From Candidatus Margulisiibacteriota bacterium (GTDB lineage: Bacteria > Margulisbacteria > WOR-1 > O2-12-FULL-45-9): DNA of 18,255 nucleotides. Each line of letters opens with the position of its first letter. Position 1 is the stretch's first letter. This document shows positions 1,280 to 15,314 of this stretch, piece after piece. The notes below the pieces were generated by a model. The model was not told the origin of the DNA, did no database searches, and was given only the letters and a program-made list of their open reading frames with translations. Position numbers and translations under genes: made by a program. The stretch lies in contig JAYEOW010000011.1 of assembly GCA_034723395.1 (NCBI GenBank), forward strand, positions 1 through 18,255, written 5' to 3'.

Positions 1280-4200
1280 ATGAGAAAATCATTGTTTCTT
1301 ATCGCTGTGTGTCTGATCATATCTTCCCCACTTTGGGCAGCTACTCAGACCGTTACCAATTGTGCTGACAGCGGCAACGGATCTCTCAGGCAGGCCATAA
1401 CGGATGCAGGCAGCGGAGATATTATTGATTTTAATATCACGACCATTGAAGCCGGCATTTCTACCGGCGAAACTTATTCGGGGTGGGTAACCAATGAAGC
1501 CGCTGACGCACAATGGTTCAGGATCGTTTTAGACACCACCTTAACTGTGAACACCGATAACATTACAATTGAGGGCTCTTCACAACCCACGGACGAAGCA
1601 AATAACCCCTATGGCCCGGAAGTTGAAATAAGATCCCCCGGCAATATAGCCATTGCCGTCTCGGGAAGCGGCGTCAAAATCGATAGCCTGGTTGTCAACA
1701 ATAGTCAAACCGGCATTAATATCAATGGAAACAATAATAAAGTCACCGGCTGTTTCATTGGCACATGTGCCACCGGCGAATCTGATAAAGGAAATTCCAT
1801 CTATGGGATTTTTATATTTAGTGACAACAACCGGATTGGCGGCCTGGCTCCTTCAGAGCGCAATATAATATCCGGAAATAACAGCTACGGCATTAAAATA
1901 AGCGACAACAGCTCCAATGAGGTTCTTGGAAACTACATCGGCTTTGGCATAGATGGAGAAACCGTAATAGCGAACGGACTAAACGGGATTTTATTAGAAG
2001 GCAGTTCTTCGCATAACTTGATAGGGACTTCGGAAAGCGGCGGAAAAAATATTATCATAGCAGGTACTACCACAAATGCTTCAGGCATAGCTTTTTCCGG
2101 GTCAGATGTTACCGGTAACTATGTTTATAATAATACAATCGGTTTAACAAGCAATGGGTCCCTTCCTGCCACACGGGGGAAATATGGGATCCTTTTCCAA
2201 GACGCTTCCCATCACAATTATATTGGCGGAACAAATACCGGGGAGGCAAACATTATCTCCGGAAATTCATCTGACGGCATTTATATTACAGGCAGCGGCA
2301 CCAGCAGTAACGAGGTCCTGGGCAATTACATTGGCACCGACTCATCCGGAGCCCTTGATTGCGGTAATGGGTTAAATGGCATCACTATTTCTAACGGCGC
2401 CTCGCAAAATAAAATCGGCAACGGGACCAGCAACGGAAGGAATATTATCTCCGGAAACGACAGACGCGGTGTAGAGATTAACGGCACAGGCACTGATCAC
2501 AACCAGATTCTGGGAAATTATATCGGCACTGACGTAAACGGAACTTCATCTTTAACAAACGAGTCCAGCGCAGTTTACATTGAAGGGGGAGCAAAATATA
2601 ACAAAATCGGCAATGGGGCCTCTGGAGGCAGAAATATATGCAGCGGAAACGCTTACGGCATTTACATGAGGGGAACAGGAACCAACAGCAACGAAGTCCT
2701 GGGTAATTATATCGGGACGGATAAAACCGGCACCACAGCCCTTCCAAACACAGTCCAGGGTGTGACTTTTTTTCTCGGCGCCTCCTATAACATGCTCGGA
2801 GGAGCTACCCCCGCCCCGGGAACCGGAAATGGCAATGTGATATCAGGAAATAAATCCTATGGTGTTTATATGGGCGGCTCAGCAACAATTGGCAATCGCG
2901 TTTTGGGAAATCTGATCGGTACAAATTACAACGGCGCCTCTGCAATTCCAAACGGCTCATCTGCTTCAACAGATGGAGTTCATATTAATGGGTCGCCCCA
3001 TAACCAGATCGGAGACGGTACTGCCGACGGAAGAAATATTATTTCCGGCAATGCCGGGAGCGGTATTTGTATCAAGAGCACTTCTGCCTGCAGCAACGAG
3101 ATTTCGGAAAATTACATCGGCACCGACATAAACGGAACATCCGATTTGGGAAATGCTGTCCACGGCATATATATTTATAACAGCTCTTCATTTAACCAAA
3201 TCGGCCCCGGAAACACGATTGCCTTTAATACAGATGGTGTTCGGGTAGATGGCGCAAGCACAACCAAAGAAGTCATCACCCAGAACTCGATCTTTTCCAA
3301 CAGCGGCAAGGGAATTGCCATCGTAAACAGCGCCAATCCGGGCGCCAGCATTCCCTTGATTTTTTCCGCCATCCGCGACCCATCCTCCGGCCAGAACCAG
3401 ATAACCGGAGAGGGCGCTCCCGCTTTGGGAACGGTCGAGTTATTCAAGGCCGAAGGAGATCAGGGAAAAACATATCTGGGATCAACCACCGCGGATATCT
3501 CCGGAAAATGGAGCATAACCATGAGCAGCCTGGCGACCGGCGATGCGGTAGTGACGACCGGCACTACCGCCAATCCCGAGACCTCAGAATTCTCTTCCCC
3601 CGAAGTGGTGGTGGAAGGCATCATCCCCACTCCCTCCGACCTCGATAGTTTTAACGCAAATGCCCCCTCCTCTGCCATACAGGGAAGCTCTTTCAGTACA
3701 ACGGTGACCGCGCTGAATTCTCAGGGAAGTGTTGAAACAAACGTCATCGGCACAACTCAACTCCTGGTTGACAACGGGACCATCACTCCCGAAAGCATTG
3801 CCGAATCATCCTTTACCAATGGCGTCTGGACCGGAGATATTTCGCTTGGCGAGATCGGAGCAAGGACGATTACCGTCTCAAACGAAGGATCGATTGGCGC
3901 CGCCTCGGTGCTTGTCCTGAACGCAACTATCGAACTTACCTCCACCGACCTGGGCATCGCCGGTATGTCGATCACGATCCCTGCCGGCGCGGCTTCGGCT
4001 GAAGTAAATATCACCGCCAGTGAAGTAGCTTCGCCGGGCAGCCCGCGCCCCGGTTTTTCCATCGGCGGGACTATCGTTGATATTGACTCAACCGTGACAA
4101 ACTTCCTTCTCCCGGTAACGGTTACCATGCCGATTAATGGTCCCCTGGCCGATCCGAGGGTCTATTATTGGAACGGGACAGAATGGAGCAGTGACGGAAT

Positions 4201-4582
4201 TACCATTGTAGAGACAACTGATACTTATATTACATTTACGACCACACATTTCACCATCTTCGCTCCTATGGGAGCTATCGCCAGCAACCTGGTGCGCTTT
4301 GGCCCCAATCCATATAATCCGAACTCCGGCACGCCTGCCAAAATATGGTATTGGCTGACCGCGGACACGGCTACCAGCATCTATATCGTCGATATGTCCG
4401 GAACGCTGGTCTGGAAGAATAGCTACGCAGCCGGATCAAACGGCGGCCGCGCTGACTCCAACGATATCGACTTTAACGGCAAAGACCGCTGGGGCAACAT
4501 TTTAGGTGACGGCGTTTACATATATAAGATCGTGCAGGGCGGCAAATCAATTGGCGGAGGCAAGATCGCGATAATTAAATGA
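1280..4582 (+). CDS. Large secreted parallel beta-helix repeat protein with Ig-like, ZU5-like and T9SS-like (FlgD-Ig) C-terminal domains
   Basis: Signal peptide (PLWA|A); VTNxxDSGxGSLRQAI N-terminal motif; about 8 repeats of ~60-68 aa (NEVLGNYIGTD...NIISGN); C-terminal GPNPYNP...FNGKDxxGxxLxDGVYIYKI...GKIAIIK. Confidence 0.88.
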   Translation: MRKSLFLIAVCLIISSPLWAATQTVTNCADSGNGSLRQAITDAGSGDIIDFNITTIEAGISTGETYSGWVTNEAADAQWFRIVLDTTLTVNTDNITIEGSSQPTDEANNPYGPEVEIRSPGNIAIAVSGSGVKIDSLVVNNSQTGININGNNNKVTGCFIGTCATGESDKGNSIYGIFIFSDNNRIGGLAPSERNIISGNNSYGIKISDNSSNEVLGNYIGFGIDGETVIANGLNGILLEGSSSHNLIGTSESGGKNIIIAGTTTNASGIAFSGSDVTGNYVYNNTIGLTSNGSLPATRGKYGILFQDASHHNYIGGTNTGEANIISGNSSDGIYITGSGTSSNEVLGNYIGTDSSGALDCGNGLNGITISNGASQNKIGNGTSNGRNIISGNDRRGVEINGTGTDHNQILGNYIGTDVNGTSSLTNESSAVYIEGGAKYNKIGNGASGGRNICSGNAYGIYMRGTGTNSNEVLGNYIGTDKTGTTALPNTVQGVTFFLGASYNMLGGATPAPGTGNGNVISGNKSYGVYMGGSATIGNRVLGNLIGTNYNGASAIPNGSSASTDGVHINGSPHNQIGDGTADGRNIISGNAGSGICIKSTSACSNEISENYIGTDINGTSDLGNAVHGIYIYNSSSFNQIGPGNTIAFNTDGVRVDGASTTKEVITQNSIFSNSGKGIAIVNSANPGASIPLIFSAIRDPSSGQNQITGEGAPALGTVELFKAEGDQGKTYLGSTTADISGKWSITMSSLATGDAVVTTGTTANPETSEFSSPEVVVEGIIPTPSDLDSFNANAPSSAIQGSSFSTTVTALNSQGSVETNVIGTTQLLVDNGTITPESIAESSFTNGVWTGDISLGEIGARTITVSNEGSIGAASVLVLNATIELTSTDLGIAGMSITIPAGAASAEVNITASEVASPGSPRPGFSIGGTIVDIDSTVTNFLLPVTVTMPINGPLADPRVYYWNGTEWSSDGITIVETTDTYITFTTTHFTIFAPMGAIASNLVRFGPNPYNPNSGTPAKIWYWLTADTATSIYIVDMSGTLVWKNSYAAGSNGGRADSNDIDFNGKDRWGNILGDGVYIYKIVQGGKSIGGGKIAIIK

Positions 4583-5634
4583 GAATGAACAAAAAGCCCT
4601 CACCCAGGCATTCACTAACAAACGGTTTTTCATCCACTCCCTCTCCCGGAGGGAGAGGGACGCTATGGATAATTGGACAACAGGGAATACCTTGGGTGAG
4701 GGTTTGGATTTTAATATTTATTCTGGTTTCATTATTCGGATTTTCAGCAAACGCTTCTAGCTTTGTTGATCTTACTGAGATCGGCGTCGGCGCTCGCCCT
4801 CTAGGTATGGGTAAAGCTTTCAGCTCGATCGTTAACGATGGCAGCGCGATCTTTATCAATCCGGCAGGATTAACCTCGATTGATCGATATAATTTAATAA
4901 GCATGAGTGGAAACCTCTTAAATGAGATCCCCTACATGGTCTTAGGCGGCGCCTGGAAAACCAGATACGGCTATTGGGGAGTTGGTTATGTCAGTGCTGC
5001 TGCTGGGGGGATCAAAGAGACCCTATTGATCAACGGCACCCCAGAAATAACCGGTAACGAAGCAAATTTCAGCACATCGTCAATCATATTGAGCTATGCA
5101 AACGATGCCAAAGAGATGGAGTTGATCAACCGGATCGGATTCTTGACCGATCGGGATGCAACTGTCGGCTTCAACTTAAAGCTTGTAAGTTACGGCTTTA
5201 ACGGAGCACCCAGTTTTGAAGGGCAAGATGCCAACGGTTTTGACCTTGATGTCGGCACCATCTTCCCGATCAGAGAAAATACGCATGGATCAGTAACAAT
5301 TAAAAACTTCCTCCCGGGAAATAATATTAAGAGTGACGAGATGCCAATGACAATTGTTGGCGGCGTCGCCAACGAAACCCCGGAAAAGAATTTACTAACT
5401 GCGGTTGATGCAGAATATGGAAGCGCTGGCTTTTTATTCCGCCTTGGTGCAGAGTGGAATCCTAAAGAGCCATTATTTATTCGTGGTGGATTAGACCAGA
5501 CTGCAGATGGATTTGACCTGGCCTTTGGTGTCGGAACAAAGATCCGGGGATTTACTTTCGATTATGCTTACCACACCTATACCAACCTATCGGAATTTTC
5601 GACCCACTACTTCTCCTTCGGCTACAACAGGTAA
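4579..5634 (+). CDS. PorV/PorQ-like outer-membrane beta-barrel protein
   Basis: GVGARPLGMGKAF...AIFINPAGL N-terminal signature, GFDLDVG, RLGAEW, FDYAY and HYFSFGY beta-strand motifs. ATGA overlap with the upstream gene. Confidence 0.82.
   Translation: MRMNKKPSPRHSLTNGFSSTPSPGGRGTLWIIGQQGIPWVRVWILIFILVSLFGFSANASSFVDLTEIGVGARPLGMGKAFSSIVNDGSAIFINPAGLTSIDRYNLISMSGNLLNEIPYMVLGGAWKTRYGYWGVGYVSAAAGGIKETLLINGTPEITGNEANFSTSSIILSYANDAKEMELINRIGFLTDRDATVGFNLKLVSYGFNGAPSFEGQDANGFDLDVGTIFPIRENTHGSVTIKNFLPGNNIKSDEMPMTIVGGVANETPEKNLLTAVDAEYGSAGFLFRLGAEWNPKEPLFIRGGLDQTADGFDLAFGVGTKIRGFTFDYAYHTYTNLSEFSTHYFSFGYNR
4594..4705. repeat. Palindromic REP-like element within the coding sequence
   Basis: Outer inverted repeat CCCTCACCCA (4597-4606) / TGGGTGAGGG (4693-4702). 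Inner perfect stem TCCCTCTCCC-GGA-GGGAGAGGGA (4638-4660). Confidence 0.8.
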
Positions 5635-8971: not shown

Positions 8972-10009
8972 ATGATCTCTATTCAAAACCCAGGACACAA
9001 TAGTGGGATTACAAGAAGAACTTTATTACAACTTTCTTTACGCACAGGAGCTGCACTGGTGGGCAGTGGACTGGTACACTCATGCAAAAGAAAGGGAAGA
9101 ATTAAAGCACTAGCCATAACTCCCAAGGAAACAACCCTAAAACTGCTGGAAGAGATCAAGCACAAGAGCCTTATGTCCCCCAGATACGGGTTTTTTATCA
9201 AAAAAATGATCGAGTTAATCAAAACCAACAGACTGCACGTTAAATATCTGGACACCGCAGACCCGCAAAGACCCGATAGATATAATTCTAAGACCGACAC
9301 CATCGAGATCAATCCTGTAACTCTTGAACTGCGCGCAAAATCATCCTTCATTCACGAGCTCTTTCACGCTTATCAGGATTGGCAAAGGAAAGCGGGCCCA
9401 AACTCATTTGTAGAAGCCGAGGCCTACCTGGCTGAAAACGACTATCTCTTCCATTGCCACGATGCTCCCGGATTAGAAGCCTGGCTAAGCATTGAAACTG
9501 ATCCCAAAGAAAAGAAAGATTTCCTCTTTGGATTTAACGCTCCCGCTTCGTTAATAAAAAGGATTTCCAATGCGGATTTTCATTCGCACGGATATCATCA
9601 AGCGGTCAAATTAACTGCCTACAATTATATATGGGCAACTACTTTCTTCACTGTATCTAAACGGGTTTTGGGCGTTCTTTCATTCCTAAAGCGATCGGCA
9701 ATGGACGACAATACAGTCCTGCGTTATCGGGCATTCCACTTGCATAGAATGCAATCCCTGAGCAACAGCCAGACTTTGCAGGTCCGGATAATTGGGGCGG
9801 AAGTAAGTTGGAAGGTATCAGATGCTATCATGCAGTTTGTAGGGAGCAGCCGTTATTTAATAAGAAAACTATGGGGATCCGGGAAAAAGGCCGAAGCCCA
9901 GGCACTTTTAAGCAGAACTTTTGAAGAATTTAAGCACGCGCTCCAATCCTCCGCCCGGATCTATACGCTCGACCAGCTCAAGCCGGAGATTTTTGACGGG
10001 ATAAAGTAA
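8972..10009 (+). CDS. Hypothetical HExxH zinc-metallopeptidase-like protein with twin-arginine-like N-terminus
   Basis: TRRTLL plus hydrophobic stretch ending in Cys. [10 protein letters not shown] followed by EAEAY. AGAGG RBS upstream. Confidence 0.72.
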
Positions 10010-14534: not shown

Positions 14535-15314
14535 ATGGCAGAACAAGGAATACAAGGAATAAACCCGAATATCAGTGCGCAGGCCGAAGGGATCGCCGGA
14601 TCGGCAGCGGTCAACTTTACCGGCACCGAGCGTAAGATTATTGAAGAGCTGGGCGGCAAGCTCGATCCCAAAACCTCTTTTATGGAACTCTTTAAAAATA
14701 AACCTTTGAATGCCAAGGTCGAGAATCAAGAAACTACCGTTAAGCGGCATCAGGATATCAATAAGATGGAACGGCAAGTCGTTGACCATCGGAAGATGTT
14801 GAAAGAGTCTCCTCACCTTGTACCGCGTGAACGGGTGGAGATCAAAAAAGATCTGCCGGATAAATTTGAAGAATCAGAAAAACCGATAGTTAGTGTTTCA
14901 GATGAAGACTCTGCTTCGATCAAAAATAAGAAAGATAATAAATTGCACGAAAATACGGTCGCGATCGTTAAAGAATTAAACCTTAATCCTTCTGAGATCA
15001 TGGACAAGTTCAATCTCGAACAGAAAGGGCTGCTTAGCCTGGTCAGCCGCATTAAAGATCTCCACTTAAAGCGCCTATTAACCGAGAGCGAAGTAGAATT
15101 TAAATCGGTCTCAGATACAATCAAAAAAACCTCCCTCTCTTCGGCAAAACCAGAAGCCAGGGAGTGGCTATCATCCCAATTAGACAAACTTACCAAAGAG
15201 GCCGCGATCTACAAATTGAAACTTTCAAAATCACTCCAAGCGATCGAATATACCGAAAAAAGAGAAGAAAATATTAATTGGCTGACAAAGTCTATCGCAC
15301 TGCTATCGGCCTAA
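14535..15314 (+). CDS. Hypothetical protein, K/E-rich, predicted helical C-terminal half
   Basis: 259-aa ORF filling the gap between divergent and convergent genes. No family recognised. Confidence 0.75.
   Translation: MAEQGIQGINPNISAQAEGIAGSAAVNFTGTERKIIEELGGKLDPKTSFMELFKNKPLNAKVENQETTVKRHQDINKMERQVVDHRKMLKESPHLVPRERVEIKKDLPDKFEESEKPIVSVSDEDSASIKNKKDNKLHENTVAIVKELNLNPSEIMDKFNLEQKGLLSLVSRIKDLHLKRLLTESEVEFKSVSDTIKKTSLSSAKPEAREWLSSQLDKLTKEAAIYKLKLSKSLQAIEYTEKREENINWLTKSIALLSA

Follow-up and report, generated by a model that had tools for sequence, protein, structure and literature searches.

The cargo gene and its locus

The 18,255-nt stretch of DNA analysed here (contig JAYEOW010000011.1 of a Candidatus Margulisiibacteriota bacterium; hereafter, the window) contains a gene for a large secreted protein, which we refer to as the cargo, followed on the same strand by a gene for an outer-membrane beta-barrel of the PorV/PorQ family. 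From its N-terminus, the cargo is composed of a probable signal peptide, a body of beta-helix repeats, an Ig-like domain, a beta-sandwich that we assign, based on its modelled fold and its profile matches, to the ZU5/GAIN_B superfamily, and a C-terminal domain (CTD) resembling those of the cargo proteins of the type IX secretion system (T9SS). The beta-sandwich is probably related to the bacterial Microbial Autoproteolysis INducing (MAIN) domains, and its last turn contains an HFT tripeptide at which we predict that the protein cuts itself. The positions of all these elements are given in Table 1.

A first-pass annotation of the window, made without database searches, had proposed an HF[ST]-type autoproteolysis site immediately ahead of the CTD. 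The reading frame confirms that the HFT tripeptide it pointed to corresponds to H990-F991-T992, and the strings that it quoted from the surrounding domain (ITIPAGA, PVTVTMP, VYYWNGTEW and TTTHFTIFA) are all in frame, within residues 899-995. The closeness of the motif to the CTD also stands; the distance of ~16 residues to G1008 does not, as the CTD starts at about residue 1004, 12 residues past T992. Regarding the body of the protein, the Pfam Beta_helix model matches the cargo itself weakly (E 0.25); since Beta_helix/NosD matches are clear on close homologs, we assigned this region to beta-helix repeats. One homolog, P0018, with the source label 'Candidatus Margulisbacteria bacterium', shares 55% identity with the cargo.

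Table 1. Features of the cargo gene and of the adjacent barrel gene in the window
Feature	Position (nt)	Strand	Details
Cargo gene	1280..4582	+	1100-residue secreted surface protein
Probable Sec signal peptide	1280..1339	+	residues 1-20, MRKSLFLIAVCLIISSPLWA; inferred from reading the translation
ZU5/GAIN_B-like (MAIN-like) beta-sandwich	3917..4282	+	residues 880-1001; AlphaFold2 model, VIA-align, PDB profile matches
Predicted autoproteolytic triad H990-F991-T992	4247..4255	+	codons CAT TTC ACC
Predicted scissile bond between F991 and T992	between 4252 and 4253	+	
Last beta-strand of the domain and short linker	4253..4288	+	T992-N1003; would remain with the CTD once cut
T9SS-type (type A / FlgD-Ig-like) CTD	4289..4579	+	residues 1004-1100
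PorV/PorQ-family outer-membrane beta-barrel gene	4579..5634	+	longest open reading frame from ATG 4579; likely start GTG 4696
Intergenic stem-loop	4583..4700	+	113-nt gap from the cargo stop to barrel GTG 4696; RNA fold

Fold of the domain

Using a 64-row alignment (A1) as input, we obtained an AlphaFold2 (AF2) model of residues 871-1100 with a predicted local distance difference test (pLDDT) value of 95.2 and a predicted template modelling (pTM) score of 0.77, while a single-sequence AF2 run on residues 800-1100 gave a pLDDT of 40. The model is made of two beta domains, model residues 10-131 corresponding to residues 880-1001 of the cargo and model residues 134-230 to its CTD (residues 1004-1100). 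Structural comparison of the first domain with VIA-align gave as the best match the ZU5 domain of ankyrin (3f59_A; Z 11.8, root-mean-square deviation [rmsd] 2.4, 112 of 149 residues aligned), followed by the GAIN_B domain of CD97 (9mqr_A; Z 11.4, rmsd 2.8, 117 aligned) and the GAIN domains of BAI3 (4dlo_A; Z 10.2, rmsd 3.2, 124 aligned) and ADGRB2 (8oek; Z 9.8, rmsd 3.0, 123 aligned). Foldseek returned the same families as VIA-align for both beta domains. The ZU5-like fold supposed by the first-pass annotation was thus borne out, as a ZU5/GAIN_B-like one.

In the AF2 model, H990 closes the strand formed by model residues 113-120 and the next strand spans model residues 123-129, with F991 and T992 making up the turn that joins them. 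These are the final two strands of the sandwich, and F991 and T992 occupy the same position as the GPS cut in GAIN domains.

Homologs of the domain and conservation of the motif

Profile searches against the PDB were carried out with A1 and with a second profile, A2, restricted to the domain (38 rows). Ankyrin ZU5 was matched with an E-value of 4e-9 with A1 and, in ankyrin-3, of 9e-11 with A2; the A2 profile also matched the GPS regions of ADGRF1 (E 2.4e-5) and ADGRG1 (6.5e-5), and further matches of these profiles included the ZU5 domain of ZO-1 and the GPS regions of ADGRG3 and ADGRL3. The ankyrin ZU5 matches span mainly the N-terminal two thirds of A2, and the motif-bearing C-terminal part matches the GPS regions. 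In the PDB, both families were reached by profiles only; a phmmer search of it with the C-terminal 260 residues of the cargo gave no significant match. In the Pfam annotation of the 64 members of A1, ZU5 was found on 14 and GPS on 10, and the GPS model matched the domain fragment of the cargo with an E-value of 0.0036.

To assess the conservation of the motif, we used the 131 residues from 880 to 1010 as a phmmer query against 1.84 billion representatives, which yielded 164 hits at E<=1e-3. Motifs were counted in the best 150 of these hits, 136 of which span the motif column, the remaining 14 being mostly FG-GAP-like repeat or partial hits, or truncated proteins. Among these 136 homologs, 125 retain the pattern H-x-[ST] (HFT 56, HFS 33, HLS 22, HLT 12, HIS 1 and HMT 1), and H990 is the sole invariant column of A1. 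In another count, the +1 position was T in 70 and S in 60 cases. At each of the 11 loci of relatives that we inspected, the motif is H-[FL]-[ST]; the conservation ahead of CTDs that the first-pass annotation had named as a check on its proposal was therefore found. The same plain phmmer search reached three GPS-bearing proteins, with HFT aligned to their HL[ST] motifs; in P0068, a protein with a secretin-type seven-transmembrane (7TM) domain (7tm_2) and a GPS (E 5.2e-6), the aligned tripeptide is HLS.

In its own genome the domain is present as a single copy, according to a hidden Markov model search of all open reading frames (ORFs) of at least 80 residues at E<=1. CTD matches are present in all 60 relatives of this genome, and a match that spans the domain was found in at least 20 of the 60 among the matches listed (150 of about 593). 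A locus search with the single protein retrieved no close relatives; the 10 loci that it gave were distant or partial (Thermoplasmatota, Pseudomonas, Bergeyella).

Anchoring elements next to the domain in homologs

CTD-like tails follow the motif in 46 of the 136 homologs; they extend for 80-109 residues from the S/T of the motif (~70-95 past the domain) and start with P[NS]P[FYLA]. Two further homologs have tails of 111-112 residues that are similar in look to a CTD. Other homologs end in dockerin (3), poly-Gly (12) or LPTTG (1) tails, and many of the remaining ones have long tails. Additionally, profile A2 matches SLH-domain proteins of Bacillota, with E-values of about 1e-14 to 1e-10. Judging from these sequences, the domain typically adjoins an anchoring device.

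A different ending was observed in nine of the 136 homologs (P0062, P0069, P0071, P0081, P0085, P0097, P0120, P0142 and P0148), in which YLP(L/I/V/A)xx[KR] closes the protein a few residues past the motif. This terminal YLPxxx[KR] sequence may represent a C-terminal signal for sorting or anchoring that has not been described before.

The CTD and the neighbouring barrel

The second beta domain of the model is most similar to the CTD of PorU (6za2_A; Z 12.0, rmsd 1.8, 88 residues aligned by VIA-align), followed by the CTDs of PorZ (5m11; Z 9.8, rmsd 2.5, 85 aligned) and mirolase (8qb1_A; Z 9.7, rmsd 1.9, 76 aligned). By its fold it is a type A CTD, and the TIGR04183 model for such domains is borderline on it, with 25 bits in the genome search (cut-off 23).

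The barrel matches NF033709 (PorV_fam) with an E-value of 6e-17 and 62 bits, over positions 7-325 of the 326 of the model. Its likely start at GTG 4696 gives a clean signal peptide ending in ANA/SS, and the alignment with orthologs begins only at about residue 41 of the longest ORF. A search of this barrel for an SLH domain found none, and seven other long barrels of the same genome end in SLH domains. The pairing of CTD and barrel genes is frequent in this genome, which contains 16 ORFs with a CTD and 27 PorV-like ORFs: eight of the 16 CTD ORFs have a same-strand barrel directly downstream, and two more have one directly upstream. Such pairs can be seen, for example, at G000:C4:24190-28931, C46:55621-58180, C29:120950-125324 and C33:21437-26528. 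At the loci of relatives, the downstream barrel is retained in 5 of the 11 inspected.

We also modelled a complex of the CTD fragment (residues 992-1100) with residues 60-351 of the barrel. The complex scored 0.82, with the best of three controls at 0.00; 116 of 157 solved complexes score as high, as do 2 of 215 mismatched pairs, counts that are rough since custom alignments were used. The runs agreed in at least 95% of the contacts, with a pLDDT of the partners of at least 85. The interface is formed by residues 1003-1100 only, and the final strand of the GAIN-like domain takes no part in it. This model supports the binding of the CTD to the downstream barrel, and its score may reflect likeness to solved PorV-substrate complexes.

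Compared with the type A cargo proteins of the T9SS of Bacteroidota, the cargo of the window thus shares the CTD fold and a PorV/PorQ-family partner. It differs in that its own genome lacks PorU and full-length SprA, in that the cargo proteins of this genome tend to have their own adjacent barrel, and in the SLH tails of seven of the barrels.

The gap between the two genes is predicted to fold into a stem-loop of -46 kcal/mol (z -4.82), and none of 200 shuffled sequences was as stable. Its pairing covers the GTG start codon and the stretch ahead of it, with a perfect 10-bp G+C core, and it may control the translation of the barrel. Elsewhere in the window, three ORFs on the forward strand (157-573, 8972-10009 and 14535-15314, of 138, 345 and 259 residues) have no Pfam or NCBIfam match; they are located among the housekeeping genes uvrA, hisI, dnaE, scpA/B and tyrS or trpS.

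PorU and SprA in the lineage and in Bacteroidota

The first-pass annotation had placed the self-cut in the role of the PorU protease. We searched the own genome of the window (G000; 97% complete) and two relatives, G016 (one contig; 98%) and G020, with models of PorU (cut-off 420 bits) and SprA (cut-off 200 bits), and took the Bacteroidota genomes G169 and G105 as positive controls. In G000, G016 and G020, the PorU model matched in its CTD part only, with at most 54 bits, and the SprA model matched locally, with at most 35 bits; PorU and full-length SprA were therefore not found in these three genomes. The controls gave 1016 (G169) and 1003 bits (G105) for PorU and 1490 and 1475 bits, respectively, for SprA. 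The GldM model is uninformative, as it had no match anywhere, even in the controls with PorU and SprA, and the Peptidase_C25 model also had no match anywhere, which is not proof of absence.

G169 and G105 also carry the domain directly ahead of a type A CTD (TIGR04183 at 46.7 and 46.5 bits). The motif at these Bacteroidota loci is HFS in L042 and a degenerate KFS in L043 (G105). In a sample of 301 Bacteroidota genomes, the phylum of G061, the domain was matched in 38; 12 loci of this sample were read, two of which show the domain-CTD pairing and two of which are of the toxin type with an N-terminal domain (L049 and L053). Genome G061, searched with profile A2, had no match.

In sum, PorU was not found in the own genome and its two relatives, and two Bacteroidota genomes with both PorU and SprA share the domain-CTD pairing. 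The presence of the pairing in PorU-bearing Bacteroidota indicates that self-cleavage is not simply a PorU substitute, and the proposal that it acts in place of PorU is circumstantial. In the lineage of the window, the predicted self-cut would be the only evident route to part the cargo from its CTD.

Two outer-membrane proteins of ~1400 residues, L015 (G000:C29:2833-6933) and L017 (G000:C43:25152-29450), are each encoded convergently to a CTD gene. They show local similarity to SprA at positions 585-674 (E about 1e-11), far under the cut-off, and could represent a reduced translocon. In an ESM Atlas search, a 1367-residue outer-membrane protein with local SprA similarity was grouped with outer-membrane clusters of a generic kind only, SprA ranking sixteenth (score 0.85).

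Comparison with known self-cleaving domains

The ZU5, GPS and Nup98 domains were united by Zhang et al. (2012; PMC3482391), who proposed ZU5 autoprocessing as a general trait of bacterial surface proteins. Brogan and Rudner (bioRxiv 10.64898/2026.05.12.724683) described the MAIN domains of B. subtilis YfkN and other proteins, defined operationally by PSI-BLAST retrieval from the MAIN domain of YfkN. MAIN domains are bacterial GAIN_B-like domains that cut between the F and the S of HFS, an activity that ends upon S-to-A mutation and is restored by S-to-T. Nearly all of those assayed were cleaved, and the resulting fragments co-purify and remain associated. Proteins with such a domain usually consist of a signal peptide, an ectodomain, the MAIN domain and an anchor, in this order. 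The anchors named in the preprint are sortase signals, wall-binding domains and SLH domains, and MAIN is cast as a possible Gram-positive counterpart of autotransporters. The first-pass annotation had offered two outcomes, that the cargo cuts itself from its CTD or that it stays held by a force-releasable beta-strand, and the results on MAIN domains match the second of these.

The domain of the cargo is similar to MAIN domains in its GAIN_B-like beta-sandwich with H-F-[ST] in the last beta-turn, in the arrangement of a signal peptide, a large ectodomain, the domain and a surface anchor, and in the proposed non-covalent retention and release by shear. Where it departs from those described in the main text of the preprint is the anchoring, which in this diderm relies on a T9SS-type CTD and, as predicted, on a PorV-like outer-membrane barrel dedicated to it. 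One of the 38 members of A2 matches the YfkN-type family NF006937 (1.2e-4). The domain is likely of the MAIN type.

Partial matches of the domain were obtained in Thermoplasmatota and other archaeal metagenome-assembled genomes (L020, L021, L022, L025 and L026; 30-47% identity over 38-96 residues), which fit the archaeal occurrence of MAIN domains reported in the same preprint text. Weak matches to TIGR04213, the archaeal 'PGF-pre-PGF' model, fall on the end of the domain that bears the motif, as in residues 570-613 of L042 (E 3e-3) and in one of the 38 A2 members (4.6e-5); the domain ahead of archaeal PGF-CTERM anchors may have the same fold.

The GAIN/GPS domains of adhesion G protein-coupled receptors (GPCRs) and polycystin-1 share with the cargo domain the GAIN_B fold (Z 10-11) and an H-Phi-[ST] motif at the same turn. 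The cargo domain differs from them in that the CxC cysteines that would flank the motif are missing (...ITFTTTHFTIFA... is free of Cys), in that Pfam GPS stays under its cut-off, and in being followed by an Ig-like CTD instead of a 7TM domain. A helical GAIN_A was not seen either, residues 800-880 being all-beta, a weakly supported point taken from the low-confidence model (pLDDT 40). The conserved cysteines, the GPS score above the cut-off and the multi-pass domain that characterize GAIN sensu stricto are thus missing from the cargo, and the GAIN_A domain probably is as well.

ZU5 domains are autoproteolytic in PIDD1, with an HF/S-type site, and in the FIIND of NLRP1 and CARD8, and non-catalytic in ankyrin, ZO-1 and UNC5. 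They provide the best structural and profile matches of the cargo domain, and the site of the latter resembles that of PIDD1. The known ones differ in being parts of cytosolic eukaryotic scaffolds and death-fold platforms, and no UPA or death domain follows the domain of the cargo. With its fold, its profile similarity and its H-hydrophobic-[ST] motif before the last strand, the cargo domain has the features of the ZU5 superfamily in the sense of Zhang et al. (2012). The ZU5 domains of bacterial polymorphic toxins and surface proteins treated there (PMC3482391) belong to the same superfamily; those of polymorphic toxins are N-terminal, before SpvB/RHS, and that of the cargo is C-terminal, directly before the CTD.

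As a class, self-cleavage of this kind is not a new idea, having been proposed for ZU5 by Zhang et al. (2012) and demonstrated for MAIN domains. The type of anchor, a T9SS-type CTD with a PorV-like barrel, is not named for such domains in the parts of the literature covered. Full-text searches retrieved no paper linking ZU5/GAIN autoproteolysis to the T9SS, the one co-mention of Por_Secre_tail and ZU5 being incidental, and a literature search for Margulisbacteria and type IX secretion found nothing. The terms 'T9SS' and 'type IX' are absent from the main text of the MAIN preprint; its supplementary partner tables may include Por_Secre_tail or FlgD_ig.

Proposed mechanism and its alternatives

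We propose that, after export and folding, H990 would activate the hydroxyl group of T992, which would attack the carbonyl of F991. Through an N-to-O acyl shift and subsequent hydrolysis, the F991-T992 bond would then be broken, in the tight turn that leads into the last beta-strand. From that point, the beta-helix ectodomain of ~970 residues would be held only non-covalently, with the last strand (T992-A999) still inserted in the sandwich and connected through a linker of 4-5 residues to the CTD. The CTD would dock on the PorV/PorQ-like barrel encoded directly downstream, and the ectodomain would be displayed on the surface and shed by force or unfolding, with no need of a protease. Cleavage between F991 and T992 is, in our judgement, likely, given the conservation, the modelled position and the analogy with MAIN domains. 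Taken as a whole, the model of a self-cleaving domain that acts as a releasable tether anchored to the barrel is moderately probable. The analysis shows the fold, the homology, where the motif lies and how well it is conserved, the pairing of the two genes, and the lack of PorU and full SprA in this lineage; from there on, cleavage, non-covalent retention, barrel anchoring and shedding as the function are what we infer.

Several observations weigh against this model. A motif of this kind is no guarantee of a cut: ankyrin ZU5, the closest structural match, is a non-cleaving scaffold, and another matched structure, 8oek, is, by its title, a GAIN domain crystallized in the uncleaved state. Pfam GPS reaches 16.1-18.2 bits on the cargo, under the curated cut-off of 22.5, and the links to the MAIN domain of YfkN are indirect. 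The motif is degenerate in 11 of the 136 homologs (e.g., YLG, TLG and SFS), and three motif-less homologs have CTD-type tails (YLG, TLG and, in a Bacteroidota locus, KFS), which indicates that the scaffold can outlast the catalytic residues. On the side of the anchor, TIGR04183 scores 19 bits on the CTD in hmmscan, under its cut-off of 23, and the PorV_fam score of the barrel is below the cut-off of 90 bits.

Some of these points would be expected if the domain were a non-cleaving ZU5-like scaffold, spacer or binding module, as in ankyrin, ZO-1 and UNC5, with HFT kept for the folding of the last hairpin: the top structural and the strongest PDB profile matches are to the non-catalytic ankyrin ZU5, an uncleaved GAIN crystal structure exists, and the domain persists in homologs that have lost the motif. 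Against such a role, the histidine is invariant in A1 and H-x-[ST] is kept across very different architectures, S and T replace each other at the +1 position as they would in a nucleophile, and the ankyrin matches lie mainly outside the motif-bearing part of the profile, which matches GPS. Nearly all related MAIN domains assayed cleave, according to the preprint (bioRxiv 10.64898/2026.05.12.724683). We therefore consider a pure scaffold rather unlikely. In the degenerate variants (KFS, YLG and TLG) that combine the domain with a CTD, namely L043 (G105:C22:72547-75876; KFS), P0041 and P0054, the cut has probably been lost, a situation also known from some adhesion GPCRs.

A second possibility is that the cut does take place but acts constitutively, as maturation in lieu of PorU, freeing the ectodomain to the medium after CTD-led export, with neither retention nor anchoring. 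The lack of the catalytic part of PorU and of a full SprA in the own genome and two relatives (G016 being assembled in one contig) agrees with this, as does a motif only 12 residues ahead of the CTD. It is at odds with the continued association of GAIN and MAIN cleavage products (the latter in the preprint, bioRxiv 10.64898/2026.05.12.724683), with a cut strand that is integral to a confidently modelled sandwich, and with the domain-CTD pairing in Bacteroidota that have full PorU and SprA. Moreover, the domain is present on one of the 16 CTD ORFs of the own genome and thus cannot be the general route of CTD removal there. This role is, in our view, improbable.

A more elaborate proposal goes beyond tethering: in this diderm lineage without PorU, the CTD would be, instead of an export tag to be removed, a permanent plug-in anchor for its dedicated barrel and the assembly an analogue of adhesion GPCRs, in which an ectodomain pulled off by attachment force would bare the T992-IFAPMGA strand, linked to the barrel by the CTD, as a tethered ligand that gates, or signals at, the barrel. 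In this way the cell would sense attachment force across the outer membrane. We regard this as a long shot. Finally, a chance HFT in an ordinary Ig-like spacer, for which it can be said that tripeptides recur by chance and that Pfam GPS is under its cut-off on the cargo alone, is ruled out by the conservation of the position in 125 of 136 homologs, the ZU5/GAIN_B fold match and the ZU5 and GPS profile matches.

Significance

If the cargo is cut as the releasable-tether model predicts, tethers of the GAIN/MAIN type would reach beyond the wall-anchored proteins of Gram-positive bacteria and would also serve proteins that T9SS-type CTDs and PorV-like barrels anchor at the outer membrane. The domain-CTD unit of the cargo, together with its neighbouring barrel, offers a handle on the retention and release of CTD proteins in bacteria without PorU, and the pairing at L042, in Bacteroidota with a full T9SS, suggests a protease-free surface release for some T9SS cargo. 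This kind of domain is used for self-cutting by animal adhesion receptors and has been described in bacteria only recently; its presence in the cargo is one more observation that speaks for a prokaryotic ancestry of the module by which adhesion GPCRs are cleaved.

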